Source: Acidimicrobiales bacterium (GTDB lineage: Bacteria > Actinomycetota > Acidimicrobiia > Acidimicrobiales > Aldehydirespiratoraceae). From it: a DNA stretch of 64,000 nt. Within the stretch, counting starts at the first letter, position 1, and each line of letters begins with the position of its first letter. The position numbers and the translations under genes were made by a program. Below the pieces are notes generated by a model, which was not told the DNA's origin, made no database searches, and worked only from the letters and a program-made list of their open reading frames with translations. Shown piece by piece: positions 11,815-53,528 of this stretch. The stretch covers positions 3,086,921 to 3,150,920 of the forward strand of contig OZ220747.1 of the NCBI GenBank assembly GCA_965117015.1, given 5' to 3'.

Positions 11815-12849
11815 ATGGCCCGAAGGCTCACTGAGTTCAGCCACGGCGCTGGTTGAGCCTGCAAGATCGCCCCCGGCGATCTCGCGCACGTGGTGCGCGG
11901 CCTAACCCCTGACCCCCCGCCGGAGTTGCTTGTCGGCCTGGCCACCGGTGACGACGCCGCCGTGTGGCGGATCGGCCGCGGCCGTGCCCTGGTCCTGACC
12001 GCCGACTTCATCACGCCGGTGGTGGACGACGCGCGCACTTGGGGCCGCATCGCGGCCACCAACGCGGTGTCCGACGTGTACGCCATGGGCGGGAGGCCCC
12101 TGCTGGCACTGAACCTGGTGGCCTGGAACTCCGAGGAACTGTCCAACGACCTGCTGGCCGAGGTGCTGGCCGGGGGCGAGGACGCCGCCCGGGCCGGCGG
12201 TTTCGTGGTGGGCGGCGGCCACACGGTCGACGATCCCGAGCCCAAGTACGGGATGGCCGTGGTGGGCGAGGTCAATCCGGGGCGCATGCTCACCAACGCC
12301 GGCCTGCGTCCGGGCAGTGCGCTGGTCCTGACCAAGCCGCTGGGCACGGGGATCATCTCGACCGCCATCAAGCGGGCCGAGGCCCGCCCAGAGGTGGTGG
12401 ACCGGGCCGTCGGGGAGATGACCCGGTCCAACGCCAACGCGGCCGAGGCCGCCATGCGGCACGGGGCCACCGCGGCCACCGACGTGACCGGCTTCGGCCT
12501 GCTGGGCCACGGCCTGCGGATGGCCCAGGAGTCGGGCGTCGACCTGGAGATCTCCGTCGGCGACGTGCCGATCATCGAGGGAGCGCGGGAGCTGGCCGCG
12601 CTGGGCACCGTCCCCGGCGGGACCCAGCGCAACCTCGACTGGGTGTCGCCCCATCTCGACCGCGGCGACGCCGGGGAGGCGGCCGTGACCCTGCTGGCCG
12701 ACGCTCAGACCTCAGGGGGACTGTTACTGGGCATGGTCAGCCACGACGCCGGCCTGGCCGCCGTCACCGAGCTGAGGGCCTCAGGCCACGAGGCCGCCAT
12801 CATCGGCGAGGTCACCGAAGGCTCCGGCCGCATCCGCCTCCAGCCCTGA
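11815..12849 (+). CDS. selD: selenide, water dikinase SelD with in-frame TGA (probable selenocysteine) at 11854-11856
   Basis: Track ORFs 11638..11856 (ends ...MARRLTEFSHGAG-stop) and 11890..12849 are in the same frame. Joined, they read MARRLTEFSHGAG-U-ACKIAPGDLAHV. This matches the SelD N-terminal glycine-rich loop, where the catalytic Cys/Sec sits. The rest is AIR-synthase-like SelD sequence. RBS GGAAGGGGG lies upstream. Confidence 0.85.
11860..11886 (+). promoter_or_regulatory. candidate SECIS hairpin downstream of the selD UGA
   Basis: AGATCGCC (11864-11871) pairs with GGCGATCT (11875-11882). The stem can extend by TGC/GCG across an A/C mismatch. It starts 4-8 nt after the TGA. Confidence 0.5.
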
Positions 12850-34940: not shown

Positions 34941-35050
34941 GAACGCTGCGAGTCGGCGGCCTTGCGCGCTAGATGCCAGCCGTGAGAAGATCGCCCTTCC
35001 GGTCCCGTTGCCCGACCCCATGGCAACCGTAGAAGCGAGAGGTTCGTAGC

Positions 35051-35545
35051 TTGGAGCTAGACGACCTAGACCTCGACATCGTTCGGATTCTCAGCGACGA
35101 CGGCAGGGCCAGCTACAGCGAGATGTCCAAGGCGCTGGGCGTCAGCGTCGGCACGGTCCGGAACCGGGTAAACCAGATGCGGGACACCGGCATGCTGTAC
35201 TTCAACGTCTGGCTGGACCCGCACCGGTCTGGCATCGGCGTCATCGCCACGTTGCTCTTGAAGGTGCAGGCGGGATGCCTCCCGGAAGTGACGTCGACGC
35301 TGATCGATCTGGTCGAGACCGGATACGTCGCCACCCTGGCGGGCGAACACGATGTACTTACGGACGTCTTCTGCCGGGACGCGTTTCATCTCAGCCGTCT
35401 GGTACACGATGAGATCCAGACCATCGAGGGCGTTATCGAGGTCCGCTGCTACCTCGTTACCGACATCAAGTACGAGTCCAGCCTCAACATCCGGAGCGTG
35501 ATCAACAAGTCGGGCGAGTCAGGCAGCGTCAGCGGCGAAGTCTGA
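35051..35545 (+). CDS. Lrp/AsnC family transcriptional regulator
   Basis: 164-aa ORF with TTG start. LDLDIVRILSDDGRASYSEMSKALGVSVGTVRNRV is the Lrp/AsnC N-terminal HTH. Confidence 0.8.
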   Translation: MELDDLDLDIVRILSDDGRASYSEMSKALGVSVGTVRNRVNQMRDTGMLYFNVWLDPHRSGIGVIATLLLKVQAGCLPEVTSTLIDLVETGYVATLAGEHDVLTDVFCRDAFHLSRLVHDEIQTIEGVIEVRCYLVTDIKYESSLNIRSVINKSGESGSVSGEV

Positions 35546-35561
35546 AGGGGCTAAGGAGGAG

Positions 35562-36755
35562 TCAGGTCCCGGAACCGCTCCATGGGACTCGGGGCAGTTG
35601 CTTCTCCTTGTCCACGAACGGAACGGTCTCGACGGTGGCCGCGTGGGGCGTTCCGTTGCAGTCGTGCAGCCGGACCGTCTTGCCGTTCCAGTCGTCGCCC
35701 GGCAACGGCTGGTCGAAGCGCACGTAGCCGATGCCGGCGTCGAGCGTCGGCGACCACGATCCGGCGGTCATGTGGCCCACCGGGCCGCCGTCGAAGTGGA
35801 CGTTCAGGCCGGCTTCCGGCGTGGCGGTGGCGCAGACCAGGCCGAACAGCAGCTGGCTGCGGTCGGCGGTCTCCAGCGCGTCCCGGCCGATGAAATCGCC
35901 CTTGTCGAGCTTGACGAACTGCCCGAGACCGGCACCGTAAGGCGTGAGGCCCGCCTCGATGTCGCTTCCGTTGTCGAGGATCCCGGACTCGATGCGCCGG
36001 ATGCCCATCGACGACGACGAGCTGAACTCCATCCCGAACCGCTCCCCGCAGGCGAACAGGCCGTCCCAGAGGGCGTCGTGGTCGGTGGGCTCCGGGCCGC
36101 TGTTGCAGTAGATCTCGATCCCCGCCTCCCCCGTCCACCCGGTGCGGGACACCCACAGACGTTGGCCGCACACGTCGAAGAAGCCGGCGTGGAAGTACTT
36201 GAAGTCCTTCGACAGCCCGCCGCCTATGGCCGCGTCGAGCACATGGAGCGACTTCGGTCCCTGGATCTGCAGCACCCGCGAGTGGGGGTCGCGCACCTCG
36301 ACGTCGAGGCCGATGGCGTGAGCCTCGAGCCAGCTCTCGAACTCGCCGTTGGCCTTGACGTACATGTACCGGTCCTCGGCCAGGCGCATGACCACGCCAT
36401 CCATCAAGATGGTGCCGTCGTCGTGGCAGGCCAGGCCGTAGCGGCCCCGCCCGACTGGAAGGGTCTCGGTCCGGCAGGTGAGCACCCGCTCGAGCAGCCG
36501 GCCGGCATCGGGTCCGACGATCTCGACCGGCTTCTCCGGGACGTCGTACAGCATCACGCCGCGGCGCAGCTTCCAGTAGTTGGGGATGGGGTCCTCGTCG
36601 CGGGAGGTCTTGAGGGGATAGAGGCGGTTGCAGTACATGCCGAAGACCGTCTGATCGGTCACGTACCGGTCGGCGAACGGAGACTGCCCGATACGGAACG
36701 CGCTCAACTGGACGGTGCCGAACGACTCGACGTAATAGTGCCTGTCCCCGGTCAT
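35562..36755 (-). CDS. aminomethyltransferase (GcvT) family protein, DmdA/GcvT-like
   Basis: C-terminal 397 aa of track ORF 35562..37736, starting MTGDRHYY after RBS GAGGT. GcvT-fold features are present (LYDVPEKPVEIVGPDAGRLLERV, VSRTGWTGEAGIEIY). Confidence 0.8.
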   Translation of the reverse strand: MTGDRHYYVESFGTVQLSAFRIGQSPFADRYVTDQTVFGMYCNRLYPLKTSRDEDPIPNYWKLRRGVMLYDVPEKPVEIVGPDAGRLLERVLTCRTETLPVGRGRYGLACHDDGTILMDGVVMRLAEDRYMYVKANGEFESWLEAHAIGLDVEVRDPHSRVLQIQGPKSLHVLDAAIGGGLSKDFKYFHAGFFDVCGQRLWVSRTGWTGEAGIEIYCNSGPEPTDHDALWDGLFACGERFGMEFSSSSSMGIRRIESGILDNGSDIEAGLTPYGAGLGQFVKLDKGDFIGRDALETADRSQLLFGLVCATATPEAGLNVHFDGGPVGHMTAGSWSPTLDAGIGYVRFDQPLPGDDWNGKTVRLHDCNGTPHAATVETVPFVDKEKQLPRVPWSGSGT

Positions 36756-36762
36756 GGATACC

Positions 36763-36774
36763 TCAAGCGCTTGA
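36763..36774. promoter_or_regulatory. 12-bp perfect palindrome in the divergent promoter
   Basis: TCAAGCGCTTGA lies between the GcvT-like start (36755) and the Rieske oxygenase start. Confidence 0.35.
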
Positions 36775-36821
36775 TGGGCCGGCTCAGGGTAGCCACCCAA
36801 CCCGTGTGCAACGATTGGGGC

Positions 36822-38183
36822 ATGGTCGACACCGCACCCCCGGACGAGGCCGAGATCCTCGGCACTGCCGTCACGGCCTCGGGTCTGGCCGCGGAGGCCC
36901 CGGTGAGGGTCCCGGTCGAGCGCTACATCTCGGCCGGGTTCGCCGAGCTCGAGCACGCCAGGCTGTGGCCCAGGGTGTGGCACGTGGCCTGCACCGTCGA
37001 CCACGTCGCCAACCCGGGCGACTGGTTCGAGCACCGCCTCGGCCGGTGCTCGGTGCTGCTGGTGCGGGGCGACGACGGCGTGCTGCGCGGCTTCCAGAAC
37101 GTCTGCCGCCACCGGGGCAACACCATCTGCCAAGGCTCGGGATCCGGCGCGACCGAGCTTCGCTGCCCGTATCACCGCTGGGCCTGGGATCTGGCCGGCC
37201 GGTTGCGCGAGGTTCCGTCGCGGCGAGGCTTCGGCCCGCTGCGCAACGACGAACTGGGGTTGGTGCCGGTGCAGGTGGACACTTGGACCCGTCTGGTGTT
37301 CGTGAACCTGGACCTCGACGCCGAGCCGCTGGACGGCTGGCTGGAGGGCGTCCCCGACGACATCGCCTGGGCCAATCTGGACGAGTTCCGGTGCGACTAC
37401 TCCACCATCACCCCGGTCAACTGCAACTGGAAGGTGGTCAACGAGGGCTTCTCGGAGACCTACCACGTCCAGGGCCTGCACCGCGAGATGTTGGCCAGCA
37501 TCGACGACGTCAACGCGCCCCAGAGGATCTGGGACCGCCACAGCGCGTCCTACCAGGCCTACGGCGTGCCCAGCCCGCGCCTGGGTCGCAACGTGGACGA
37601 CCAGGTGGTGTGGGACTCGTTCGTGATGACCGAGGGCGGGCGCATGGGACCGGAGTACCGGGAGCCCTGCGAGGCGCCCGACGTGCCCGACGGCCTGACT
37701 CTCCGGGACGTGATCGCTCAGAAGATCCGCGACCACCAGGCCACGCTCGGGGTGGACCTGTCGGGCTACGACACCGCCCAGATCATGAGCCTCAGCCAGT
37801 TCAACCTGTTCCCCAACGCCACCGTGCTGGTCAGCGCCGACCTGTTCACCGTGATGACGGCACGGCCCGGCCCCACCCCCGACGAGGGCGAGTTGGCCAT
37901 CATCAACCTCCGCCGTATGCCGTCGGCCGAGGCCCCGGCCTCACCGCCGGTTCACCTCACCGTGCCCCTCGACAAGGCCGACTTCGGGTTCGTGCTCAAC
38001 CAGGACCTCAGCGTGATCCGCACCATGCAGAACGGCCTGCGCCAGCCCGGGCTGTCCCACGTGGTGCTGTCGGGCGAGGAGTGCCGGATCATCAACATGC
38101 ACCGCCACCTGGAGCAATACCTGGGCCTCGAACCCGGCGGCTGGGAACCGGTCGGGCCGGAAGCGAGTCCGTCGCTGGTGTAG
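36822..38183 (+). CDS. Rieske (2Fe-2S) aromatic-ring-hydroxylating-type oxygenase alpha subunit
   Basis: Rieske motif CRHRGNTIC...CPYHRWAW and catalytic-domain motif NWKVVNEGFSETYHVQGLH. Start at MVDTAPPDE; the ATG at 36774 is an alternative. Confidence 0.8.
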   Translation: MVDTAPPDEAEILGTAVTASGLAAEAPVRVPVERYISAGFAELEHARLWPRVWHVACTVDHVANPGDWFEHRLGRCSVLLVRGDDGVLRGFQNVCRHRGNTICQGSGSGATELRCPYHRWAWDLAGRLREVPSRRGFGPLRNDELGLVPVQVDTWTRLVFVNLDLDAEPLDGWLEGVPDDIAWANLDEFRCDYSTITPVNCNWKVVNEGFSETYHVQGLHREMLASIDDVNAPQRIWDRHSASYQAYGVPSPRLGRNVDDQVVWDSFVMTEGGRMGPEYREPCEAPDVPDGLTLRDVIAQKIRDHQATLGVDLSGYDTAQIMSLSQFNLFPNATVLVSADLFTVMTARPGPTPDEGELAIINLRRMPSAEAPASPPVHLTVPLDKADFGFVLNQDLSVIRTMQNGLRQPGLSHVVLSGEECRIINMHRHLEQYLGLEPGGWEPVGPEASPSLV

Positions 38184-38227
38184 GAGCGTCGCCGGACGGA
38201 CCATGCCCGGAAGCGAAGCCGTGGCGG

Positions 38228-38887
38228 TCAGCCGCCTGCGGACGCCGCCAGCGACTTCAACGAGGCGTAGCTCACCGTCGTAGCAATGGCCGTGGCTTCG
38301 GCGAGGGACGACGGATCGAAGGCACCCCGGTCCACGGCGAGCACCGTCAGGCCCGCCGCCCGTGCCGACGCGATGCCTGCGGGAGAGTCCTCCACCGCCA
38401 CAACCACGTCGCAACCCAGCTGCGTGGCTGCTCGCTGATACAGGTCCGGAGCCGGTTTCGGGAAGGCCACCTGGTCAACGCCGATGATCCCGTCAACCAG
38501 ACCGCCCAGATCGGTCTGGGCCAGAGCGGCTTCGACTTCCGCTGACGTGGAGTTGGAGGCCACCACGACCGGGATGCTGCTGGTCTGCAGCCGCTCCAGC
38601 GTCGCCCGGGCGTCCGGATAGCTGGCGAGGTCCTGTTGCCTGGCAGCAGCGAATGCGGCGCCGAACCGCTCTCCGAGCTCCGCCAGTTCCGGTGCTCCCA
38701 GCCACCTCCTGAAGTAGTCGACGCTTTCCTCGTCGGTGCACCCGGTCACCGCCCGCAGGTCGTCGAGCGTCAAGTTGATCCCGTACTCGCCGGCCAGCGA
38801 GCGCCACACCTGCCAACCGAGTTCCTCGGTGTTCACCAGCACGCCGTCGCAGTCGAACACGACGCCGAACGCGGCGACCGCCGTCAT
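38228..38887 (-). CDS. HAD-superfamily hydrolase (beta-phosphoglucomutase-like subfamily IA)
   Basis: Starts MTAVAAFGVVFDCDGVLVNTE (DxDG motif I). Later VASNS and EDSPAGIASARAAG motifs are present. Confidence 0.8.
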   Translation of the reverse strand: MTAVAAFGVVFDCDGVLVNTEELGWQVWRSLAGEYGINLTLDDLRAVTGCTDEESVDYFRRWLGAPELAELGERFGAAFAAARQQDLASYPDARATLERLQTSSIPVVVASNSTSAEVEAALAQTDLGGLVDGIIGVDQVAFPKPAPDLYQRAATQLGCDVVVAVEDSPAGIASARAAGLTVLAVDRGAFDPSSLAEATAIATTVSYASLKSLAASAGG

Positions 38888-38891
38888 GCGC

Positions 38892-39707
38892 TCATCGGAT
38901 GGCGAGGCGGAGGGTGAGCTCGTAGATCCCGTCGCCCAGCCACTTGCGGAGGAGCAGGGCCGGTCGCCCCAGCATTCCCTTGACGTACCGGCGGCGCGGC
39001 TTGCCGGTGGTTGCCGCCTCCAGGAACACCTTGGCCAGCACCTCGGCCTTAGTGCCGCGGTCCGCGACACGCCCGCTGTCCCTCATCTTCAGGAGCGGCG
39101 CTACCTGAGCCTTGTAGGCGCCGTCGCCGTACTTGCGCAACTGGTCGGCGGCCACATCACCGAAGTCGGTCCTGATCAGGCCCGGCTCGATGAGCACGAC
39201 CTGGATGTTGAACGGCGCAGTCTCGAGGCGCAGGCAGTCCGACCAGCCCTCCAGGGCGTGCTTGGTGGCGTGGTACCACGACCCGAAGGGCGAGTAGACC
39301 TTGCCCCCGACCGAGGAGACGTTCACGATCCGGCCCGAGCCCTGAGCCCTCATGTGGGGCAGGACGAGTTGGGTGAGGTGGGCCACGCCGAAGAGGTTCA
39401 CCTCGAACTGGTACCTGGCGTCGTCGAGCGGGATCTCCTCGACCGGTCCGTACAGGCCGAAGCCCGCGTTGTTGATCAGCACGTCGATACGCCCCTCGGC
39501 TTCGACGATCTGGTTCACGACCCGCTCGTTGTCGTCGCCCTTGGCCACGTCCAGCTCGACCGGGGTGACGCCGTGGTCGGCCAGGTCCGCCATGCGGTCC
39601 ATCCGGCGGGCGGCGGCGTAGACGCGGTGACCCTCGCGGGCAAACAGGATGGCGGCCTCGCGGCCCATGCCCGCCGATGCTCCGGTTATCAGCACAACCT
39701 TGCTCAT
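38892..39707 (-). CDS. SDR family oxidoreductase
   Basis: 271-aa ORF. VVLITGASAGMGREAA, NNAG and YHATKHAL motifs are present. Confidence 0.85.
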   Translation of the reverse strand: MSKVVLITGASAGMGREAAILFAREGHRVYAAARRMDRMADLADHGVTPVELDVAKGDDNERVVNQIVEAEGRIDVLINNAGFGLYGPVEEIPLDDARYQFEVNLFGVAHLTQLVLPHMRAQGSGRIVNVSSVGGKVYSPFGSWYHATKHALEGWSDCLRLETAPFNIQVVLIEPGLIRTDFGDVAADQLRKYGDGAYKAQVAPLLKMRDSGRVADRGTKAEVLAKVFLEAATTGKPRRRYVKGMLGRPALLLRKWLGDGIYELTLRLAIR

Positions 39708-43503: not shown

Positions 43504-43553
43504 GCGCGGCCTGGCCTAAGCGGGTGCGCCGGTAGAGGACGGCATATCGGCCG

Positions 43554-43602
43554 GAACTTCAAGCAGTTAGCCACAATAGATGTGGTTTTCCGCTTGAAGT
43601 TC
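43554..43602 (+). repeat. 49-nt nested-palindrome intergenic element, copy C
   Basis: GAACTTCAAGCAGTTAGCCACAATAGATGTGGTTTTCCGCTTGAAGTTC, starting 51 nt after the katG stop. Confidence 0.85.
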
Positions 43603-43639
43603 CCGGACGGCTCCGCGGCCGGTAGCACGCCTACCCTTT

Positions 43640-44406: not shown

Positions 44407-45360
44407 GTGCGGGTTCTCATCACCGGCGGCGCGGGGATGCTCGGCCGCAAGCTGACCGGGCGGCTCCTGGAGCGGGGCCGTCTGCGGGGCTACGACATCG
44501 ACACGATCCACCTCGTCGACCTGGTCGAGGCCCCGATCGAGTCCGAGCTGTGCGCCGCCCATATTGCCGACCTGTCCCGCCCGAGCGAGGCCGAGTCGCT
44601 GGTCGCGCTGAGGCCTGACGTGGTGTTCCACCTCGCGGCCGTGGTCTCCGCCGAGGCTGAGGCCGACTTCGACAAGGGCATGGCGGTCAACCTCGACGGC
44701 ACCCGCCACCTGTTCGACGCCATCCGGCTCTCCCCCATCACGCCCCGGGTGGTATATGCCTCGTCGATCGCGGTGTTCGGGGCGCCTTTCCCCGATCCCA
44801 TCCCCGACGACTTTCATCCCACCCCGCTCACCTCCTACGGCACCCAGAAGCTGATCGGCGAGGCCCTGCTGGCCGACTACTCCCGGCGCGGGTTCTTCGA
44901 CGGCATCGGGATCCGGTTCCCGACTGTCAGTGTTCGTCCCGGCGCCCCCAACGCAGCCGCCTCCAGCTTCTTCTCCGGCATTATCCGCGAGCCCCTCAAC
45001 GGCGTCGAGGCCAGGCTGCCGGTTGACCGCGATGTGCGTCATCCCCACGCCAGCCCTCGAGCCGCGGTCGGGTTCCTGGTCCACGCCGCCGAGCTGGACA
45101 CAGCGCGGCTCCAAGGTCGCCGCAACCTCACCATGCCGGGCGTGTCGGTCACGGTCGGAGAGCAGATCGAGGCCCTCGGCCGGGTAGCCGGCCCCGAAGC
45201 GGCGGCATTAATCGTCGAATCACCGGACCCTGCCGTGGCCGAGATCGTCGCCGGATGGCCGTCACGCTTCGACACCACCCGTGCCGACGCCCTCGGTTTC
45301 GCGGCCGACGACACCTACGACGACATCATCCGCGCCTACATCGAGGACGACTTGCGCTGA
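44407..45360 (+). CDS. NAD-dependent epimerase/dehydratase family protein (extended SDR)
   Basis: 317-aa ORF with GTG start. MRVLITGGAGMLGRKL Rossmann motif and YGTQK catalytic motif. Confidence 0.8.
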   Translation: MRVLITGGAGMLGRKLTGRLLERGRLRGYDIDTIHLVDLVEAPIESELCAAHIADLSRPSEAESLVALRPDVVFHLAAVVSAEAEADFDKGMAVNLDGTRHLFDAIRLSPITPRVVYASSIAVFGAPFPDPIPDDFHPTPLTSYGTQKLIGEALLADYSRRGFFDGIGIRFPTVSVRPGAPNAAASSFFSGIIREPLNGVEARLPVDRDVRHPHASPRAAVGFLVHAAELDTARLQGRRNLTMPGVSVTVGEQIEALGRVAGPEAAALIVESPDPAVAEIVAGWPSRFDTTRADALGFAADDTYDDIIRAYIEDDLR

Positions 45361-45405
45361 CGAGGTGTGAGGCCTAGGGAGCTGTCGTCACCCCTGAGCC
45401 CTGGC
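45314..45405 (+). repeat. left copy of a diverged direct repeat (last 15 codons, stop and downstream hairpin of the epimerase-like gene)
   Basis: Aligns with 49935-50025 at a constant offset of 4621 nt. By hand alignment, 40 of 47 positions are identical up to and including the TGA, and roughly three quarters afterwards with one 1-nt indel. Confidence 0.75.
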
Positions 45406-45654
45406 GGGGTCCGTTTCGACGATGGCGGTGACGGTCTTGCGGCCGAGCCCGGACGCCTCGGCGATCTGCCGCAGCGAGGCGCCGACCCGGTGGGCAGTCC
45501 GGATCATGTCGTCGCGGATAGCGATCTCCCTGCCGGCCCGCTCCGCACTCAGGCCAACCACGGCAAGAGCGGTCCCGACCTCATAGTCGAGGCCGGACCG
45601 GTACTTCTCCATTCTCGCGATCGCGGCGGACACTTCAGCTTCGGTGTAGCTCAT
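45388..45654 (-). CDS. small helix-turn-helix protein, function unknown
   Basis: 88-aa ORF. The C-terminal ASLRQIAEASGLGRKTVTAIVE looks like a resolvase/sigma-region-4-type HTH. ATGA overlap with the upstream small ORF. Confidence 0.5.
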   Translation of the reverse strand: MSYTEAEVSAAIARMEKYRSGLDYEVGTALAVVGLSAERAGREIAIRDDMIRTAHRVGASLRQIAEASGLGRKTVTAIVETDPARAQG

Positions 45655-45830
45655 AGATCCTCCCGCAGGCCGGCGGCCAGCTTGTCGCGTGTTCCCAGGA
45701 GGGTCGCCAGTCGCGGTGATAGATCGCCGGACGCTTCGGCGACATTCAGGTGCGCAACGACCATCCCCAGCAGTTCCAGCGCTTCGATCCGTTCCAGCTC
45801 GACACGTACCATTGGTCCATACTGTACCAT
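45651..45830 (-). CDS. hypothetical small protein (59 aa)
   Basis: MVQYGPMVRVELERIEALELLGMVVAHLNVAEASGDLSPRLATLLGTRDKLAAGLREDL. Only the tail of track ORF 45651..46355 is plausible, since the rest overlaps the DMGDH-like gene. Translationally coupled to the HTH gene. No family recognised. Confidence 0.3.
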   Translation of the reverse strand: MVQYGPMVRVELERIEALELLGMVVAHLNVAEASGDLSPRLATLLGTRDKLAAGLREDL

Positions 45831-45862
45831 TAGTGGCTCATAGTGGACCACCAGCGCGAGGG

Positions 45863-48349
45863 TCAGCTGCGGGGTCGGTGGTGGTCGGGGTCGTAGACGG
45901 CTTGGCGGTGGCGGGTTGCCGGGCAGGGCGTGCCGAACACGTCGATGGTGAAGCCGGTGTCGGCGGCCGCGAACCGTCCTTCGACGTAGCCGAGGCAGAC
46001 CCGGCTGCCGGTCCGGAAGCCCGTGCCGGCCGAAGTGACGTAACCAGCAGGTCTCCCGTCGATCCGGATGGTGGCCGACGGAGCCGCATCGCCGAGCTCG
46101 CCGGGCAGCGGCCCGATGTCCACGGTCCAGATCCCGTAGCTCCACTCCGGTGGACGCTCGCTGGCCTCTAGCGCGACGGCGCAGCCGATGAACTCGCCCT
46201 TGTCGAGATGGACGAAGCGGTCGAGGCCGGCGTCGTAGGGCGTGTACTCCACCCCGAATTCGGTCTGCCAGCCGTGGTAGCCCTTCTCGATGCGCATCGA
46301 GTCGAGGGCGTACGACCCGAAGTCGCTCACCCCCAGGTCCTCGCCAGCCTCCCACAAGGCCTCATAGAGGGCCACGAGGTCGGCGTCGTTCACATGCAGC
46401 TCCCATCCCAGCTCACCGACGAAGCTGACCCTCAGCGCAGTGGCCTCGACACCGGCCACCGTGATCTGCCGAGCCGACATCCACGGCGCCGCCGCCCTCG
46501 AGAGGTCGTCGTCGCAGAGGCGCGACAGCAGCTCGCGGCTGGCCGGTCCCATCACCATCAACGTGGCGGCCCGGCGGTCGCCCAGCCGTAGCTCCACGTC
46601 CTCATCGGGGCGGAGGTTGCGTCTCAGCCAGTCGAAGTCGCGCTCGCGGGCCGCGGTCGGACCCAGCAGCAGGTAGCGGTCCGGGTCCAGGCGCGCGATG
46701 GTGGCCTCGCTCCACACGGTCCCGTTCGGGCGCAGCATGTAGGCCAGCCGCACCCGCCCCACGTCGGGGAGCCTGGTGCAGAAGACCCGGTCCAGGAAAC
46801 CAGCCGCCCCCGCACCGGCGACCTCGAAGCGTGAGAACCCGGGGTGATCCATGATGCCGACCCGGTCTCGCACGGCCAGGCACTCGTCCCCCACCGCGCC
46901 GTGCCACGGCTCGTCGCGGTAGCTGGCCGTCTTGTGGCTGTAGCGGGCGGTGGACGAGAACCAGAAGGCCCGCTCCCAGCCGGCGACCTGGCCGAAGTTG
47001 GCTCCCCCGGCGGCGAGGGTGTCGTACAACGCCGACCGGTTCACCGGGCGGGCCGACTCCCAGATCCGGTGCGGGAACGGCTCGGCGTACTGGTGCTCGT
47101 AGAGCTCCCGGACCCGCACGTTGGCGTAGCTGCAGCGCCCGCTCCCGGCCAGGGCCCAGGAGCCGAAGCGCCGGGGATCCCACGGCCACATGTCCCATTC
47201 GGTGTCGCCGCCAATGATCATCTCGGTCAGCGCCTTGCCGGCCGCGGCGGCGTGGGTGATGCCGATCTGGACCCCGGCGGCCAGATAGAAGTTGTCGAGC
47301 CCGGCGGCGGGACCGACCAGGGGGTTGGCGTCGGGGCTGTAGGCGATCGGCCCGTTCACGAACCGGGCTATGCCGACCTCGCCGAGCAGCGGCACGTGGG
47401 CGGCAGCCCGGTAGGCCACTTCGGCGATGTCGTCGGTCGAGGCGGCGAACAGGCCCGAGTCGAACACGTCGGGCACGCCCGTCTCCCACACCGTGCGGCC
47501 CTCGTGGCCGTAGCTGCCGAACAGGAAGGCGTCCTGCTCCTGCCGCAGGTAGAACATGATCTCGGGGTCGCGCACCAGCGGCAGCACGTCCCGGTGGCCG
47601 GCCAGCTCAGCGACCGGCCCGGTGACGAGGTACTGGTGATCCAGCACCGCCAACGGGATGTCGGCCCCGGCCATGCGGCCGACATCGGCCGCGTAGAACC
47701 CGGCTGCGTTGACGATGATCTCGCAGTCGATGGCCGCCGGTGCGCCGCCGGCAACCAGATGGACCCGCCAGTCGCTGTCATGCCCCGGCCCCAGCGCCTC
47801 GATGCCGACCACCCGGCTGTGACGGCGCACCCGGGCCCCGAGCCGCCGGGCCCGGCGGGCCAGACCGTGGGCCAGGCCGCTGGGGTCGATGTCGCCCTCG
47901 TAGGGGTCGAGGAGGCCGGCGATCACGGTCCCGTCGTCGCGCCAGAAGGGATGCATCGCCTCCATCTCGGCCGGCGACACGAGATGGAGGTCGAACCCGA
48001 GGCCGGTGGCGATGCCGATGACGTGGTGGAAGTGGTCGATCCGGCTGGCGGTGTGGCCCGGCCAGAACGCCCGGGTGTGGCGGTAGGTGATGGGATCGTC
48101 GGGGTCGGCGGCCAGTTCGGAGTAGAGCCGCCAGGCGTAGTTGCCGGCTCGCTGGCCGAGCCAACTGTTGGAGAAGGTGGGCACGTTGCCGGCCGCGTGC
48201 CATGTCGACCCGGCGGTGAGCTCGTGCTTCTCGACCAGCACGGTGTCGGTCTGGCCGGCCTGGGCCAGGTGCCACAGGATCGAGCAGCCGACCGCGCCGC
48301 CGCCGATCACCACGATGCGGGCCCGGTCGATGTCGCAGTCCTGGATCAC
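45863..48349 (-). CDS. FAD-dependent oxidoreductase fused to a GcvT-type folate-binding domain (dimethylglycine/sarcosine dehydrogenase family)
   Basis: 828-aa ORF. N-terminal DAO-type IVVIGGGAVGCSILWHLA. C-terminal aminomethyltransferase-like region (FSRFEVAGAGAAGFLDRV, VSFVGELGWELH). Confidence 0.85.
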   Translation of the reverse strand: MIQDCDIDRARIVVIGGGAVGCSILWHLAQAGQTDTVLVEKHELTAGSTWHAAGNVPTFSNSWLGQRAGNYAWRLYSELAADPDDPITYRHTRAFWPGHTASRIDHFHHVIGIATGLGFDLHLVSPAEMEAMHPFWRDDGTVIAGLLDPYEGDIDPSGLAHGLARRARRLGARVRRHSRVVGIEALGPGHDSDWRVHLVAGGAPAAIDCEIIVNAAGFYAADVGRMAGADIPLAVLDHQYLVTGPVAELAGHRDVLPLVRDPEIMFYLRQEQDAFLFGSYGHEGRTVWETGVPDVFDSGLFAASTDDIAEVAYRAAAHVPLLGEVGIARFVNGPIAYSPDANPLVGPAAGLDNFYLAAGVQIGITHAAAAGKALTEMIIGGDTEWDMWPWDPRRFGSWALAGSGRCSYANVRVRELYEHQYAEPFPHRIWESARPVNRSALYDTLAAGGANFGQVAGWERAFWFSSTARYSHKTASYRDEPWHGAVGDECLAVRDRVGIMDHPGFSRFEVAGAGAAGFLDRVFCTRLPDVGRVRLAYMLRPNGTVWSEATIARLDPDRYLLLGPTAARERDFDWLRRNLRPDEDVELRLGDRRAATLMVMGPASRELLSRLCDDDLSRAAAPWMSARQITVAGVEATALRVSFVGELGWELHVNDADLVALYEALWEAGEDLGVSDFGSYALDSMRIEKGYHGWQTEFGVEYTPYDAGLDRFVHLDKGEFIGCAVALEASERPPEWSYGIWTVDIGPLPGELGDAAPSATIRIDGRPAGYVTSAGTGFRTGSRVCLGYVEGRFAAADTGFTIDVFGTPCPATRHRQAVYDPDHHRPRS

Positions 48350-48383
48350 GGCTGGTCGGGCTGCGGCAGTTGGGGCGAGGCCT

Positions 48384-49883
48384 TCATGACTGCGGCGGCA
48401 CGAGGATGTCGAAGGTGGACCGGATGGACTCCTCCGCTCCGGCGGGCAAGTGGCCGGGACGGCCGGCGGACAGGATGCCGCTCACCCTCTGGCGGGCCCG
48501 GTCCCAGATCGCGGGCCGGCCCGCGGTCTCCCACTCGGCCACCGAGGCCCGGTCGCCGATGGTGGGGTACACGTACTCGGTGCGCATCAGATCCAGGGTC
48601 TGCGGATGGCCCAGGTAGTGGCCGTCGCCGGTCACCACCGACTCGACCATGGCGAGATCGAGGGCGTCCTCGGTGACGTCGATCCCCCGGACCGAGCGCA
48701 GGATGGCTCCGCACATCTCGTCGTCGATGACCAGCGCCTCGGGCGAGGCGACCATGATCGATCCCAGCATCCCGACCGAGAGTTGGACCATGTCCGCTCC
48801 CGCCTGGGCGGCCAGCGCCACGGTGTAGCCCTTCTCGTAGCCGGACTGGGTGTCGGCCACCTTGGCGTCGGTGATACCGGCCGACACGGCGTTGGGCAGT
48901 CCGAGCGCGTTGAGCAGTTGGGCGGCCGCGGCGGAGGCAACCGCCGCCTCCCCTCCCCCGCCGGTCATGGCCCCGGTGCGCAGGTCCGACACGAACGGCA
49001 TGAAGGCGTGGATGGCCGGATGGCCCGGCTTGATGGCGTCGATCAGCACGACCGCCGCCAGTATCTCGGCCAGCCCCTGGGCCAGAGCCCCCGCGAGCGA
49101 CGCCGGGCTGGTGGCTCCGGCCTGCCCGGCGGAGCAGGTCTGCACCACCATGCCGCGCCCGATGGCGGCCTCGATGATGTCGCATCCCTCGCCGCTGAAC
49201 CGCAGAGGCGGGACGACGTGGACGGCAACCGCCATGCAGAATGGCCGCCGCCAGAAGGGCCCGTCAGGGCCGAGAGCGAGGTCGAACAGGTCGACGACAG
49301 CACCGACGTTGTCCGCGGTGGTGAAGCTGACGCCGATCGGCTTGCTGGTGGCGGCCGCACAGGCGAAGGCGGTGTTCAGGTCGAGTTCCCGGCCGGTGGG
49401 TGCGTCCCGGCCGACCAGGGGGCGCAGGCCGTAGTGGATGTTGGGGCTGGCGTCGACGACCCGCATCATCGACCACAGATCGGCCAGGGTGGAGGGGCGG
49501 TACGCCCCGGTGGCCGCGTCGAGCGTCTGGACCGCGGCCCCGCCGGTGCCGATGTGCACCGTCCCGCCGCCGATGGTCAGTCCCCGGTCCTCCACGAAGC
49601 CGGGCAGATCGACCCGGGACGGCGACCGCTCGACAGCCGCCTCGACCATCGGCCGGGGCAGCGTGAGCCGCCCGTCCTCGCGCTCGACCGCACCGCCTGC
49701 CACCAAACGGTCGCGGGCGCCGGCCGGCGCGCCCGCCAGCCCGACATCGCTGAGGATGGCGCAGGCGTGCTCGACGATGGCGTCGCAGTCACCGGCGGAC
49801 AGCGGCCGGTAGCCGCCCCCTCGCGGCGGAGGAGTCGTCGCTGCCGCCGGCTGGGCGGCTTGCCGGCTCCGGCGTCTGGCCAT
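48384..49883 (-). CDS. trimethylamine methyltransferase (MttB) superfamily protein, non-pyrrolysine type
   Basis: 499-aa uninterrupted ORF. Arg-rich N-terminus and MttB-like TIM-barrel sequence (IEAAIGRGMVVQTCSAGQAGATSPASLAGAL). No in-frame TAG. Confidence 0.8.
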   Translation of the reverse strand: MARRRSRQAAQPAAATTPPPRGGGYRPLSAGDCDAIVEHACAILSDVGLAGAPAGARDRLVAGGAVEREDGRLTLPRPMVEAAVERSPSRVDLPGFVEDRGLTIGGGTVHIGTGGAAVQTLDAATGAYRPSTLADLWSMMRVVDASPNIHYGLRPLVGRDAPTGRELDLNTAFACAAATSKPIGVSFTTADNVGAVVDLFDLALGPDGPFWRRPFCMAVAVHVVPPLRFSGEGCDIIEAAIGRGMVVQTCSAGQAGATSPASLAGALAQGLAEILAAVVLIDAIKPGHPAIHAFMPFVSDLRTGAMTGGGGEAAVASAAAAQLLNALGLPNAVSAGITDAKVADTQSGYEKGYTVALAAQAGADMVQLSVGMLGSIMVASPEALVIDDEMCGAILRSVRGIDVTEDALDLAMVESVVTGDGHYLGHPQTLDLMRTEYVYPTIGDRASVAEWETAGRPAIWDRARQRVSGILSAGRPGHLPAGAEESIRSTFDILVPPQS

Positions 49884-49933
49884 CGATCGAAGTCTGTCAG
49901 CGCAGTCCGGGGCGGTCAGCGCATTTGCTCCTT

Positions 49934-49981
49934 GCCTACGACGACACCATCCGGGCCCGAATCAAGGACGACCTGCGCTGA
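49934..49981 (+). pseudogene. orphan 3' fragment homologous to the tail of the epimerase-like gene (right direct repeat)
   Basis: Encodes AYDDTIRARIKDDLR-stop, versus TYDDIIRAYIEDDLR-stop at the end of gene 44407..45360. No upstream gene body; similarity starts abruptly at 49935. Confidence 0.55.
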
Positions 49982-50012
49982 CTAGGTGTCAGGCCGGGGC
50001 GCTGTCGTTACC

Positions 50013-50037
50013 CCCGGGTCCTGCCGGTGGACCCGGG
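50013..50037 (-). terminator. hairpin downstream of the cold-shock gene (also within the right direct repeat)
   Basis: CCCGGGTCC-7 nt-GGACCCGGG, 25 nt beyond the csp stop. No U-tract. Confidence 0.4.
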
Positions 50038-50061
50038 CGGCGGTACGGTGAACCTGTCTGG

Positions 50062-50259
50062 TTAGACCGGTCTGACGTTCCGAGCTTCGTCTCCCTTGCG
50101 ACCGGGCCCGATGTCGAACTCGACAACCTGCCCCTCTTCAAGGCTTCTGTAGTTCTCGCCGACGATGTTGGAATAGTGAACGAACACGTCGTCACCATCG
50201 TCGCGTGAGATGAAGCCGAAGCCCTTTTGGCTGTTGAAAAACTTGACAGTTCCTCGCAC
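50062..50259 (-). CDS. cspA: cold-shock protein (CspA family)
   Basis: GTG start after RBS AGGAGAAGG gives [32 protein letters not shown], with RNP1/RNP2 motifs. 65 aa. Confidence 0.9.
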
Positions 50260-50342
50260 TGGTTCCTTCTCCTGCCAACCGGGCTCGTGCCCAGCAAACA
50301 TGTAAGTCTACGTTGGCCAGCGCCGGATCAGCCGCGCCGCGG

Positions 50343-52208
50343 TCAGTGATTGTGGCGGGGCAGGTCCTTGGTGCGGGAGGTGTCCTGGTACTTCAGTGCG
50401 GGGCGCAGGACCATGCCCTCGTCCATCTGGGTCACCATCGACCGCTGGATCTCCTGCCAGGGGGTGTGCGACTCCGGCACCGGGTAGCCGCCCGAAACCT
50501 CCAGCTCGGCCCGCCGCCGTTCGATCTCGGCGTCGTCGACGAGCATGTCGGCCCGGCCGCGGCGCAGGTCGATGCGGATGCGGTCGCCGGTCTGCAGGAG
50601 GGCCAGCCCGCCCCCGACGGCGGCCTCGGGCGAGGCGTTGAGGATCGACGGCGAGCCGGAGGTGCCCGACTGGCGGCCGTCGCCGATGCACGGCAGCGAG
50701 TGCACCCCTCGCACCAGCAGCGCGGCCGGGGGCTGCATGTTGACGGCCTCGGCCGCGCCGGGGTAGCCGACCGGCCCGACGCCGCGCACGATGAGCATGC
50801 AGTGCTCGTCGATGTCGAGGTCGGGATCCTCGATGCGGGCCCGGTAGTCCTCGGGACCGTCGAACACGACGGCCCGGCCCTCGAAGGCGTCGGGGTCGTC
50901 GGGGTCGGACAGGTAGCGCTGCCGAAACTCGTCGGAGATGACGCTGGTCTTCATGATGGCGCTGTCGAACAGGTTGCCCGACAGGTGCACGAATCCGGCG
51001 TCCTCCACCAGCGGCTCGTCGGTGGTGCGGATCACCGCGGGATCGGCGATACGCGCCCCCTCGCAGTTCTCGCCGATGGTGCGCCCGTTGGCGGTGATCG
51101 CGTCCAGATGGGGCAGCAGCCCGCCCCGGATCAGCTCGCCCACCACCGCGGGCACCCCTCCGGCGTGGTGGAAGTCCTCCCCCAGGTACTCGCCGGCGGG
51201 CATGAGGTTCACCAGCAGCGGCACGGCCAGCCCGTGCTTCTGCCAGTCGTCGTTGTCGAGGGCGACGCCCAGGTGGGCGGCGACCGCGTTGAGGTGGATC
51301 GGGGCGTTGGACGATCCGCCGATGGCGGAGTTCACGACGATGGCGTTCTCGAAGGCCTCCCGGGTCATGATGTCGGAGGGGCGCAGGTCCTCGCGCACCA
51401 TCTCGACGATGCGCACCCCGGTGCGGTAGGCCGTCTGGCCCCGCTCCCGGTGCGGCGCGGGGATGGCGGCCGAGCCGGGTAGCTGCATCCCCAGCGCCTC
51501 GGTCAGGCTGTTCATGGTGGTGGCCGTGCCCATGGTGGAGCAGTAGCCCACCGACGGCGCGGCCGAGGCCACCAGGTCGATGAAGCCGGCCTCGTCGATC
51601 TCGCCGGCGGCGAAGAGCTCTCGGGCCTTCCAGATGATGGTGCCCGAGCCGGTGCGCCGGCCCTCGTGCCAGCCGCTGAGCATGGGGCCCACCGAGAGTG
51701 CGATGGCGGGAAGGTTGACGGTGGCCGCGGCCATCAGGCACGCGGGGGTGGTCTTGTCGCAGCCGATGGTGAGCACCACCCCGTCGAGTGGGTAGCCCTG
51801 GAGCACCTCGACGATGCTGAGGTAGGCCAGGTTGCGGTCGAGCGCGGCGTTGGGCCGCTTGCCGGTCTCCTGGATGGGGTGCACGCCGAACTCGAAGGCG
51901 ATCCCGCCGGCTTCGCGGATGCCCTCCCTCACCCGTTTGGCCAGCTCCAGGTGGTGCCGGTTGCACGGCGACAGGTCCGAGCCGGTCTGGGCGATCCCGA
52001 TCTTGGGCTTGTCGGACTGGAGCTCCTCGCGGGTCAGCCCGTAGTTGGCGTAGCGCTCGAGGTAGATCCCCGACATGAGCGGATCGTCCACGATGTCGAA
52101 CCAGGCCGCCGACCGCAGCCCGCCCCGCCCGGGCGCCGGATCGGGCCCGGCAGCAGGATGCAGCGGGCGGGGTTCACCGGATCCGGGGGCAGCAGCCATC
52201 GCAGCCAC
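50343..52208 (-). CDS. IlvD/Edd family dehydratase (sugar-acid/dihydroxy-acid dehydratase)
   Basis: About 620 aa. LRSAAWF near the N-terminus, [16 protein letters not shown] and the [12 protein letters not shown] Fe-S/active-site region. Start at GTG 52208 or ATG 52199. Confidence 0.85.
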
Positions 52209-52235: not shown

Positions 52236-53528
52236 TCAGCGGGAGGCCTCGTCGAGGACGCGGGCGAGGATGCCTACGAAGCGGTGGATGTCGGTGAACG
52301 AGTTGTACAGGGGCACGGGCGCCACCCGGATCACGTCGGGGTAGCGCCAGTCACAGGCGACCCCGGCGTCCTCCAGTGCCTGGTGCACTGCAAGGCCGTC
52401 GACGCCCGGCATGCGGATCCGCAGCGAGTGCTGGCACCCCCGCTCGGCCAGCGCGGCGGGCGTGATGATCTCCACGCGGTCGCCGATCACCTCGGCGAGG
52501 AGGAGGTCGAGGTACTCGATCTGCTGTTGAGACTTGGCCCGCAGCGGTTCCATTCCCCCGGCCCGGTCGAACACATCGAGCGACGCCCGCAGGGCCGCCA
52601 TGACAAGGATGGGCGGGTTCGAGAGCTGCCACGACTCGGCGGTGCCGATGGGGTCGAACACGGTGCCCATCTCGAAGCGGATGTCGGGGCGCTGGCCCCA
52701 CCATCCCAAGAACTTGGGCAGTGAGCGGTCGCCGACGTGGCGCTCGTGCACGAAGGCGCCTCCGACCCCGCCTGGGCCGCCGTTGAGGTACTTGTAGCTG
52801 CACCAGACCGCGAAGTCGACTCCCCAGTCGTGCAAGGTCAGCGGGACGTTGCCCGCGGCGTGCGCGAGGTCGAAGCCGACCCGGGCGCCCACATCGTGGG
52901 CTGCGGCCGTGATGTCAGCCATGGGAAGCACTTGGCCGGTGTAGTACTGGACTCCGGGGAGCATCACCAGCGCGAGCTCCGGGCCATGCTCGGCGATCAG
53001 GGCCAGCAGGTCGTCTCGTCGCAGCGTCTCCTCGCCGGACCGTGGCCGGGCGACGACCAGCGAGTCGGCCGGATCGTGGCCCCGTTGGCTGATCTGGCTC
53101 TCCACCGCGAAGTGATCGCTGGGGAAGGCATGGTCCTCGATGAGGATCTTGTGACGCTCGGGCGTGGGGTCGTAGAAGCTCACCATCAGCAGGTGCAGGT
53201 TCACGGTGAGCGAGTTCATGGCCACGACCTCGCTGGGGCGCCCCCCGACGAGGCGAGCCAGCGGGTCCGTCAGCAGCTCGTGGTACGGCAGCCACGCCAA
53301 CTCGCCCTCGAAATGGGCGGCCGCGCCCAGCCGGGCCCACCGCTCCAGTTCAATGTTCACATATCCGGCCGCCGCTCGGGGCACGGCCCCCAGCGAGTTG
53401 CCGACGAGGTAGATCTGCGGCAGGCCGTCGGGACCGGCCGGAATGTGGAACTCGTCCCGGAACCGGGCCAGCGGATCGGCCGCGTCCAGGGCCGCCGCGG
53501 TGTCGGCGCCGGTCGTAAGCACAGTCAC
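52236..53528 (-). CDS. kynU: kynureninase
   Basis: 430-aa ORF with GTG start. DPLARFRDEFHIP, IYLVGNSLG and WCSYKYLNGGPG (PLP-Lys) are typical of kynureninase. Confidence 0.9.
   Translation of the reverse strand: MTVLTTGADTAAALDAADPLARFRDEFHIPAGPDGLPQIYLVGNSLGAVPRAAAGYVNIELERWARLGAAAHFEGELAWLPYHELLTDPLARLVGGRPSEVVAMNSLTVNLHLLMVSFYDPTPERHKILIEDHAFPSDHFAVESQISQRGHDPADSLVVARPRSGEETLRRDDLLALIAEHGPELALVMLPGVQYYTGQVLPMADITAAAHDVGARVGFDLAHAAGNVPLTLHDWGVDFAVWCSYKYLNGGPGGVGGAFVHERHVGDRSLPKFLGWWGQRPDIRFEMGTVFDPIGTAESWQLSNPPILVMAALRASLDVFDRAGGMEPLRAKSQQQIEYLDLLLAEVIGDRVEIITPAALAERGCQHSLRIRMPGVDGLAVHQALEDAGVACDWRYPDVIRVAPVPLYNSFTDIHRFVGILARVLDEASR

Follow-up and report, generated by a model that had tools for sequence, protein, structure and literature searches.

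A repeated epimerase 3' end around a methylated-amine gene block in sponge-associated Acidimicrobiia: a probable recombination scar and not a mobile-element border

When the 3' end of a gene is found again, in direct orientation, on the far side of a block of catabolic genes, is that block a mobile element? Islands that integrases insert into the 3' end of tRNA or protein genes are flanked by attL/attR direct repeats, with a surrogate tail restoring the gene. The question arises in a 64-kb stretch of DNA (64,000 nt; the window) whose host belongs to the uncultured sponge-associated Acidimicrobiia, represented by metagenome-assembled genomes. There Epi (44407..45360, plus strand; Pfam Epimerase) encodes a full-length extended-SDR protein of 317 aa that matches the D-erythronate dehydrogenase equivalog NF043036 of NCBIfam (378 bits, cut-off 325) and ends ...YIEDDLR-stop. 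Four genes follow on the minus strand: HTH88 (45388..45654; 88 aa, a C-terminal helix-turn-helix, all family matches sub-threshold), sORF (45651..45812; 53 aa as called in a conspecific contig, overlapping the HTH88 start by 4 nt, and without a match in the family search), a DMGDH-like gene (45863..48349; 828 aa; domains DAO, FAO_M, GCV_T and GCV_T_C) and, by profile match, the gene of an MttB-superfamily methyltransferase (48384..49883; 499 aa). The MttB-like ORF is uninterrupted and thus has no pyrrolysine codon, and its product, at 280 bits, falls short of the 525 bits set as cut-off for the trimethylamine equivalog. To the right lie a 38-nt leader upstream of the MttB ATG (49884..49921), a 13-nt filler (CATTTGCTCCTTG; 49922..49934), the second copy of the Epi end, the 3' flank (50029..50061, ...GGTACGGTGAACCTGTCTGG) of a cold-shock protein gene, Csp (50062..50259, minus strand; 65 aa, GTG start; profile match), a short spacer from the Csp upstream region to the IlvD stop (50325..50342), and the IlvD/Edd-family dehydratase gene (50343..52208, minus strand), a conserved gene that bounds the variable region on the right.

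The similarity of the two copies is real. Copy A (45314..45408, plus strand) contains the last 15 Epi codons and the stop, a 27-nt spacer, and at 45388-45408 the stop and last 7 codons of HTH88 on the opposite strand; copy B (49935..50028, plus strand) contains a decayed Epi 3' end (AYDDTIRARIKDDLR-stop), a spacer and an HTH88 tail. At an offset of 4621 nt, 76-77 of 95 alignment columns are identical, and the local alignment score of 101 is far above chance (500 shuffles: 19.0 +/- 2.7, maximum 33). Identity is 40/47 in the coding part (45314-45360 vs 49935-49981) and 37/48, with one 1-nt indel, after the stop (45361-45408 vs 49982-50028), while upstream the match falls to 5 of the 40 preceding bases, leaving the left edges abrupt. 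The original prediction had read the same offset, coding identity, indel and abrupt edges from the letters by hand, with about three quarters identity after the stop, and formal alignment reproduces each of them. Its layout of a full gene with its tail, an intervening block and an orphan tail beside cspA also holds: the tail in copy B is in frame, and tblastn found no Epi similarity farther upstream of it. Since the repeat spans the HTH88 tail, the whole convergent Epi/HTH88 junction has been duplicated and not the Epi tail alone. In copy B the YDDIIRAYIEDD motif, which hardly varies among 120 homologues, has undergone three replacements (I->T, Y->R, E->K); beyond YIEDD the 120 sequences are hypervariable. 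Copy B is identical in the shown 200-nt stretch of the conspecific contig L081, which matches the window at 99.6% identity across 21 kb.

The Epi-IlvD neighbourhood was compared across twenty-odd related Acidimicrobiia loci (L numbers), with Epi orthologues 80-93% identical in L001-L016. The interval proved to be pieced together from modules that occur independently: HTH88+sORF, DMGDH-like+MttB-like, Csp, a HAD hydrolase and an ion channel. HTH88 adjoins Epi in many relatives, with or without DMGDH/MttB, and in the loci compared sORF always accompanies it. The order Epi|Csp|IlvD is found in L115, L117, L119 and L120, and Epi|Csp|DMGDH|MttB|IlvD, lacking HTH88 and sORF, in L007, L113 and L114. 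Four loci have Epi|HTH88|sORF without DMGDH, MttB or Csp (L003, L004, L009, L118), and L002 has Epi|HTH88|sORF|DMGDH|MttB, of which L006 is a deletion remnant. Both junctions occur together in the window and five relatives (L001, L005, L008, L116, L081), with a full Epi at HTH88 and a 5'-truncated Epi at Csp in the same orientation across the block. The 38-nt MttB leader is common to the window, L001, L002, L005, L008 and L116, and after its last nucleotide three different sequences follow (window; L001 group; L002); L006, L007, L113 and L114 have no leader, their MttB ATG lying 7 nt from the IlvD stop. At the place of the spacer 50325..50342, L001, L005, L008 and L116 have a 227-aa HAD hydrolase gene, and the spacer looks like a deletion scar. 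The Csp of the window is 97-98% identical to that of L007, L113 and L114. In these sponge symbionts, then, genes for MttB-family and DMGDH-like demethylation of methylated amines have been gained, lost and re-ordered at one chromosomal hot spot, and this appears to have happened by ordinary recombination, with mobile-element machinery not in sight.

The truncated Epi copies form a graded series. In L005 and L116 the relic covers Epi nt 775-945 (171 nt); in L001 and L008 the same relic has lost 45 internal nt and measures 126 nt; in the window it is trimmed to 47 coding nt that start at Epi nt 908, and the filler occupies the place of Epi nt 775-907. Its tail is of two types, EDDA-stop in L001, L005, L008 and L116 vs DDLR-stop in the window. 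The EDDA tail and its spacer match the full Epi tail preceding Csp in L007 and L113, and the Csp 3' flank of the window is shared with the spacer after EDDA-type relics and EDDA-type full Epi genes of relatives; the DDLR tail, spacer and Csp of copy B are collinear with Epi-Csp of L115 and L119, except for a 22-nt stretch. The relic is of the motif class ATCGTyGAATCACC, which is otherwise seen mostly in Csp-linked Epi alleles, and HTH88-linked alleles mostly read ATCACCGAG, though the association of allele class with junction type is imperfect (exceptions L007, L120 and L118). By these comparisons the relic lies inside the Epi allele diversity of the clade. The full Epi of the window is itself a mosaic: its 5' part is nearest to L001 (91.1%; L115 only 87.6%) and its 3' part (nt 775-945) to L115 (93.0%), and these different nearest relatives place a crossover or conversion at the repeat.

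The comparative series suggests that copy B is the scar of homologous plus illegitimate recombination that merged alternative Epi-IlvD haplotypes and was later trimmed and partly converted; we put the probability of this reading at roughly 0.7, and as part of it copy B would descend from a second Epi copy, whose 3' end it preserves as a decaying remnant without function. One parental haplotype would have had the order Epi-> <-HTH88 <-sORF (<-DMGDH <-MttB) <-IlvD and the other Epi-> <-Csp (<-HAD) <-IlvD. A segment of one would have recombined into the other through a crossover in shared sequence (Epi or upstream thereof, alternatively IlvD) and a second, illegitimate join of the MttB leader, as the left side of the junction, to the Epi interior at about nt 775, that is, by homology-facilitated illegitimate recombination (HFIR). 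A Campbell-type single crossover of a circular copy with an Epi 3' fragment would be an equivalent route to the same product: full and truncated Epi as direct repeats around HTH88-sORF-DMGDH-MttB, with both junctions kept. Later, in the lineage of the window, Epi nt 775-907 of the relic would have been lost, the 13-nt filler taking their place, the relic tail exchanged or converted to the DDLR plus HTH88-tail type, and the HAD gene deleted, with the relic drifting free of selection. The order of these events and the side that was incoming DNA are what we infer, and the direction is ambiguous: the cassette may have entered a Csp haplotype, or relic and Csp an MttB|IlvD haplotype.

Several features expected of such a scar are present, namely a truncated copy in the same orientation, collinear flanks, an alternative haplotype, and one homology-free junction together with signs of a crossover. 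The case is unusually well resolved, with relics of 171, 126 and 47 coding nt and both putative parental junction types still in the population. The merger reading has its costs. The tail type of copy B is unlike the relics of the relatives and comes with an HTH88 tail, so that the reading calls for a minimum of one more exchange or conversion and one more deletion. The order in L007, L113 and L114 requires further events under every model tried, and the recurrent breakpoint after the MttB leader could hint at a preferred breakpoint, against a merger. Finally, the 'empty' sites of L115 and L119 keep about 30 nt of the HTH88 3' end; Epi|Csp there is therefore a secondary deletion and not a virgin target, and the pre-merger Csp haplotype has therefore not been sampled pristine.

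Events of this kind have precedents. PMC3240628, and references in PMC5361080, describe HFIR in natural transformation of Acinetobacter, Streptococcus pneumoniae and Pseudomonas stutzeri and in conjugation of E. coli, and both an HFIR-type mechanism and a 'displaced 3' end' as its outcome are documented (PMC3240628; PMC5361080). The Epi locus is alike in having one homologous anchor and one join without homology, with the junction abrupt on one side only, and in placing foreign or alternative DNA beside a conserved gene with no need for a dedicated recombinase. It differs in that the event is read from comparative genomics only, donor and recipient look like alleles of one locus and not like truly foreign DNA, and the original junction has been blurred by later trimming and conversion; to our knowledge, competence is not known for these uncultured symbiont hosts. 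C-terminal displacement with orphan 3' fragments is also described for rhs, CDI and T6SS effector-immunity loci, in PMC5361080 and the rhs/CDI papers cited there. In those systems, as proposed here, a conserved gene receives a new 3' end with the incoming module and its resident end is pushed downstream; the displaced orphan keeps its orientation and can recombine with the full gene again. However, they are polymorphic toxins under diversifying selection whose orphan tips and immunity genes are functional, whereas the Epi orphan, 15 codons long and derived from a metabolic SDR gene, has no evident function, and the intervening genes are catabolic. Campbell-type crossover of a circle with an internal gene fragment yields a full and a truncated copy as direct repeats around the insert. 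This is the arrangement of the full Epi and its truncated copy around the block, which the reverse reaction would delete; but for the block neither a circular form nor a replicon or origin is known, and first formation of the circle would itself require an illegitimate join.

Could the repeat have arisen in place, with no exchange between lineages? A segmental or tandem duplication from the Epi interior to the MttB/IlvD border, followed by differential loss, seems to us rather unlikely. Tandem duplications are frequent at exactly this locus (73 nt x2.5 in L116; 57 nt x2.6, plus further arrays, in L005). Starting from an L007-type chromosome, a tandem of [Epi nt 775..Csp..DMGDH..MttB] would give the MttB|Epi-775 junction in one step, and the presence of both an Epi tail and an HTH88 tail in copy B is what copying the local junction would produce. 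But at least two further replacements or deletions are required for the observed order, and the relics are nearer to the Epi genes of other genomes than to their own: the L005 relic is 93% identical to the Epi of L008 and 83% to that of its own genome, and copy B agrees with L003 in 79 of 95 columns, above the 76-77/95 for its own copy A. Furthermore, in L001, L005, L008 and L116 the relic tail is EDDA while the resident full Epi has DDLR.

It is very improbable that HTH88, sORF, DMGDH and MttB form a 4.6-kb integrative islet in the Epi 3' end, with a surrogate attL and a displaced attR, now integrase-less or mobilised in trans, as the original prediction had offered for one of two origins; this is already largely refuted. 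Direct repeats stand on both sides of the block and, as in integrase islands, include the 3' end of the target gene; some relatives have Epi and then Csp directly; the position just after the MttB leader is a junction more than once; and HTH88, which has no catalytic domain, bears a weak, sub-threshold likeness to resolvase/HTH_23-type helix-turn-helix proteins. Yet no integrase, recombinase or transposase is encoded in the 64 kb (Pfam searches of the gene calls within +/-10 kb, the locus genes and 36 further ORFs), and no tRNA lies within the window. Unlike those of an integrase island, the repeats here share no identical conserved core and their boundaries are not fixed: copies A and B agree without interruption over at most 12 nt, and across carriers the repeat begins at Epi nt 775 or 908 and has two tail types and differing right ends. 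The content is not inherited as a unit either. In relatives HTH88+sORF occur without DMGDH/MttB and vice versa, and the four genes are therefore not one unit; in the more distant L010 and L015, HTH88+sORF adjoin Epi and DMGDH/MttB are absent; and, contrary to an insertion signature, L002 has all four genes in place but lacks a second Epi tail. The proposed comparison of GC and codon usage with the flanks gave no difference, GC being 0.68-0.74 throughout and GC3 0.92 (DMGDH) and 0.91 (MttB) vs 0.87-0.95 in the flanking genes. As to empty sites, relatives with Epi followed by cspA do exist, as anticipated (L115, L117, L119, L120), but the HTH88 remnant in L115 and L119 speaks against their being uninvaded targets. 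With no recombinase, no fixed identical core, no unit inheritance and no composition shift, a site-specific att-flanked island was rejected; the evidence favours the other origin that had been allowed, an old duplication or recombination with a displaced native tail. For annotation, the lesson is that a direct repeat of a gene 3' end around a catabolic block mimics an att pair. The repeat is real but ordinary, is not a mobile-element border, and opens no new mechanism.

Very improbable, too, is the idea that the Epi end and the MttB leader end are preferred breakpoints of an unlinked, unrecognised recombination activity that shuffles HTH88-sORF, DMGDH-MttB, Csp, HAD and ion channel modules between Epi and IlvD. 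It would amount to an integron-like cassette site without a linked integrase, and four observations would fit it: the triple junction at the MttB leader, the independent tandem arrays that start at the Epi stop codon in L001, L005 and L116, the hypervariability after YIEDD, and the module order of L007, L113 and L114, a circular permutation of the merged order. It is scarcely credible that the Epi-tail match is incidental and the repeat a dispersed intergenic element with a function of its own, either REP/MITE-like or as a shared terminator, for although both copies lie between convergent genes and copy B is part of a stable hairpin downstream of Csp, a degenerate pattern of the post-stop part has exactly two sites in the 64 kb (copies A and B; 0 expected), half of the repeat is in-frame Epi coding sequence, copy A has no notable hairpin in its post-stop part and folds no better than shuffled sequence (z = +1.6), Rfam gave no match, and in relatives this position holds purely Epi coding sequence, up to 171 nt of it. 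A terminator scan at the copy B/Csp hairpin was negative and a T-run is absent, but this 9-bp G+C-rich stem, in which the Csp 3' flank pairs with the end of relic B (50011..50040, minus strand; z = -2.2), may be a Csp terminator.

The two repeat stretches of the original prediction could be reproduced in the window. Copy A (45314-45408), at the 3' end of the SDR-type gene Epi (44407-45360, + strand), aligns with copy B (49935-50028), beside the cold-shock protein gene Csp; the offset is 4621 nt throughout, with a single 1-nt indel, and 40/47 bases are identical in the coding part and 37/48 after the stop codon, and the longest exact match is 12 nt. The local alignment score was 101, against 19.0 +/- 2.7 (max 33) in 500 shuffles, and a degenerate pattern for the post-stop part hit only two sites in the 64 kb, copies A and B, where 0 were expected by chance. 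The left edge is abrupt: the 40 bases that precede each copy have only 5 identities. Read in frame, copy B gives AYDDTIRARIKDDLR-stop, an orphan tail, and no more similarity to Epi was found upstream of it. Missed earlier was that copy A also holds, on the other strand, the stop and last seven codons (45388-45408) of HTH88, an 88-aa helix-turn-helix gene; the repeat therefore duplicates the entire convergent Epi/HTH88 junction. Terminator and promoter scans found nothing, and a conserved terminator hairpin in the post-stop part was rejected, as copy A and its counterpart in the related locus L115 fold no better than shuffles.

Starting from the left, the gene series runs from KatG through a classical SDR gene to Epi, an extended SDR that scores above the NCBIfam D-erythronate dehydrogenase cut-off (378 vs 325 bits). 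The - strand then carries HTH88 (45388-45654), a 53-aa ORF (sORF, 45651-45812) overlapping the HTH88 start, a DMGDH-like flavoprotein gene with a folate-binding GcvT domain (45863-48349) and an MttB-superfamily methyltransferase gene (48384-49883), followed by copy B, Csp (50062-50259, -), an IlvD/Edd-family dehydratase gene and a kynureninase-like gene (52236-53528). HTH88 and sORF gave nothing significant in Pfam, NCBIfam, PHROGs or PDB sequence searches. The MttB-family ORF falls under the trimethylamine equivalog cut-off and has no in-frame stop, and is therefore a non-pyrrolysine member; an Rfam match to PYLIS_3, the mttB pyrrolysine insertion element, within it (48776-48875, -, 32.1 bits vs a gathering score of 38) probably reflects coding homology. 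Composition is uniform, with a GC of 0.68-0.74 over the block and its flanks and a GC3 of 0.91-0.92 for DMGDH and MttB vs 0.87-0.95 for their neighbours. Csp itself has a far lower G+C (0.55, GC3 0.70; neighbours ~0.70, GC3 ~0.9).

To find relatives, Epi was used to scan species-representative genomes, and exact-protein look-ups added a conspecific contig (L081) and eight more contigs (L113-L120); synteny was drawn from tblastn, blastn and contig gene calls. Close relatives (L001-L016, 78-93% identity) came only from sponge-associated Acidimicrobiia MAGs ('Candidatus Aldehydirespirator' and Acidimicrobiaceae). The conspecific L081 is 99.6% identical over 21 kb, and its copy B is the same in the stretch examined. 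Where the window has copy B, with the MttB leader on one side and the Csp 3' flank on the other, L005 and L116 carry an identically oriented Epi segment of 171 nt (nt 775-945), and L001 and L008 carry the same segment with a 45-nt internal deletion; in the window a 13-nt filler replaces Epi nt 775-907. Copy B is therefore the shortest in a series of decaying Epi 3' relics. Within YDDIIRAYIEDD, a motif nearly invariant among 120 homologues, it has the replacements I->T, Y->R and E->K, as would be expected of unselected sequence. The 38-nt MttB leader was also considered as a degraded Epi piece (nt ~740-775), and its similarity of ~68% is not convincing.

Among the relatives the Epi-to-IlvD interval is a patchwork. 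It holds nothing in L014; Csp in L115, L117, L119 and L120; HTH88-sORF in L004, in L003 (with ~0.9 kb extra) and in L009 (where the next conserved match is kynureninase, with no IlvD match); and HTH88-sORF plus an ion-channel gene in L118. HTH88-sORF-DMGDH-MttB is found in L006, a deletion remnant in which the MttB ATG lies 7 nt from the IlvD stop, and the same four genes followed by a HAD gene in L002. Csp-DMGDH-MttB occupies the interval in L007, L113 and L114. The merged type, with a full Epi beside HTH88 and a 5'-truncated Epi relic beside Csp, reads HTH88-sORF-DMGDH-MttB-relic-Csp-HAD in L001, L005, L008 and L116, and lacks HAD in the window and L081. HTH88 adjoins Epi also in the more distant L015 and lies ~700 nt from it in L010.

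The tails of the relics match junctions that are intact elsewhere. In L001, L005, L008 and L116 the relic ends ...EDDA-stop, and a spacer links it to the stop of Csp; L007 and L113, in which Csp comes next after a full-length Epi, have this tail and spacer behind that gene. Copy B of the window ends ...DDLR-stop, followed by a spacer and an HTH88 tail, and in L115 and L119 this sequence, lacking a 22-nt stretch, lies between the full Epi and Csp. Hence the relic and Csp of each merged genome repeat an Epi-to-Csp junction intact elsewhere, and the full Epi with HTH88 repeats the other junction type. The motif class ATCGTyGAATCACC, present in the relics, occurs in 5/7 Csp-linked Epi alleles, and ATCACCGAG is carried by 5/6 HTH88-linked ones. 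In the window, Epi is a mosaic of a 5' part nearest L001 (91.1%; L115 87.6%) and of nt 775-945, nearest L115 (93.0%; L001 86.0%), which places a crossover or conversion where the repeated segment begins.

The arrangement is most simply read as a merger of two haplotypes. One homologous crossover would have taken place in sequence shared by the two, and the second join, of the MttB leader to the Epi interior, would have been illegitimate, the process being homology-facilitated illegitimate recombination (PMC3240628). The same product would arise if a circular copy integrated by a Campbell-type single crossover. The intact gene would then bear the incoming 3' end, with the resident 3' end pushed downstream as an orphan. 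An intact gene with a displaced orphan 3' end is the pattern of rhs, CDI and T6SS effector loci (PMC5361080), which the window resembles in this respect, and the feature is another example of a type of genome scar already known. Later, in the window lineage, the relic would have been shortened, its tail turned into the DDLR type by exchange or conversion, and the HAD gene lost; a short spacer (~50325-50342) stands where relatives have that gene. We found no single parsimonious order of events for all nine arrangements, since for the L007 type every scheme tried took two or more additional steps. A pristine Epi(EDDA)-Csp-HAD-IlvD precursor was sought among full-length EDDA proteins, and both candidates, P0037 and P0040, have the L007-type arrangement. 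A JGI metagenome scan with the EDDA-type junction GAGGACGACGCNTGACTGA gave 31 matches, all by chance, with no Epi or Csp nearby.

The displaced tail and the old recombination event of the original prediction fit this merger. Its other reading, in which a 4.6-kb methylamine-catabolism cassette between direct repeats is a mobile islet inserted site-specifically, was not borne out. The repeat edges are not fixed among genomes (left at nt 775 vs nt 908; the right ends differ), the two copies share no exact match longer than 12 nt, the four genes in between are not passed on as one unit, and L002 has all four with no second tail. As for empty sites, the Epi-Csp junctions of L115 and L119 keep ~30 nt encoding the HTH88 C-terminus, which is native to HTH88 even where that gene lies 8.5 kb from Epi (L012). 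Such sites thus result from secondary deletion and are not virgin targets. No integrase, transposase or resolvase domain was found among the ~55 window genes. An origin of the relic from an old paralogue was rejected, as it shares 93% identity with the full L008 Epi, an orthologous allele, and 83-87% with others, within inter-orthologue divergence, and no second Epi locus of the same chromosomes appeared among the best 80 loci. A tRNA or known RNA as integration target was dismissed, with no tRNA gene in 30-64 kb of the window and PYLIS_3 the sole, sub-threshold Rfam match.

Three observations are odd. Three different sequences (window, L001 group, L002) follow the same nucleotide ending the 38-nt MttB leader. 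Independent tandem arrays start from the Epi stop codon in L116 (10951-11131; 73 nt x2.5, 99% matches), L005 (10925-11067; 57 nt x2.6, 75% matches) and L001 (10940-11030; a duplication of ~59 nt, read by eye), and the downstream copies in L001, and at least the last in L005, have CGA where the first has the TGA stop. Finally, in 120 close homologues (P0001-P0120) the residues after the invariant ...YIEDD(L) (window 45340-45360) are hypervariable: LR, LPA, FPGRD, A, LP, LS, LPHRM, LDRPR and others. The Epi end has the look of a breakpoint used repeatedly where a conserved block meets a variable region. For all three, the simplest explanation is a fragile boundary of this kind, with selection keeping Epi intact; that a directed process lies behind leader junctions, arrays and tails, its sole hints, we consider very improbable. 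L005 carries more young tandem duplications, at 11702-11917 (72 nt x3, inside the DMGDH-like gene), 14209-14284 (38 nt x2) and 9900-9999 (50 nt x2), which reflect genuine instability or else artefacts of long-read assembly.

The HAD gene, encoding a 227-aa HAD-family hydrolase, lies between Csp (MttB in L002) and IlvD (L001:16000-16760; L116:16260-16943; L002:15500-16240) and is cleanly absent from the window; a paralogue is found upstream of KatG in L081 and L113. The window Csp is 97-98% identical to that of L007, L113 and L114 and only 92-93% to that of other merged-type genomes, and the Csp module has a history of its own. To the right of IlvD (window 52236-53528; L114-L116, L119) two versions occur, a kynureninase-like gene or a cytochrome P450 gene on the other strand, and the variable region appears to extend past IlvD. 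The KatG/SDR interval holds a 23-nt inverted repeat with a 5-nt loop (GGAACTTCAAGCAGTTAGCCACA / TGTGGTTTTCCGCTTGAAGTTCC, 43553-43603), which may be a terminator or operator. Upstream of sORF and HTH88 (45800-45860) the repeated motifs GTACCATTGGTCCATA, CTGTACCATTAGTGGCTCATA and GTGGACCACC look like a putative operator or promoter; they are kept in L003, L004 and L009, and GTGGACCACC is still present in L007, where sORF and HTH88 are lost. Just upstream, at 35000-39000 (L081:645-4481), are genes for an AsnC-type regulator, a stand-alone GcvT-like protein and a Rieske/ring-hydroxylating oxygenase alpha subunit. The surroundings as a whole seem to serve methylated-amine demethylation, and the DMGDH/MttB pair is therefore functionally not isolated.
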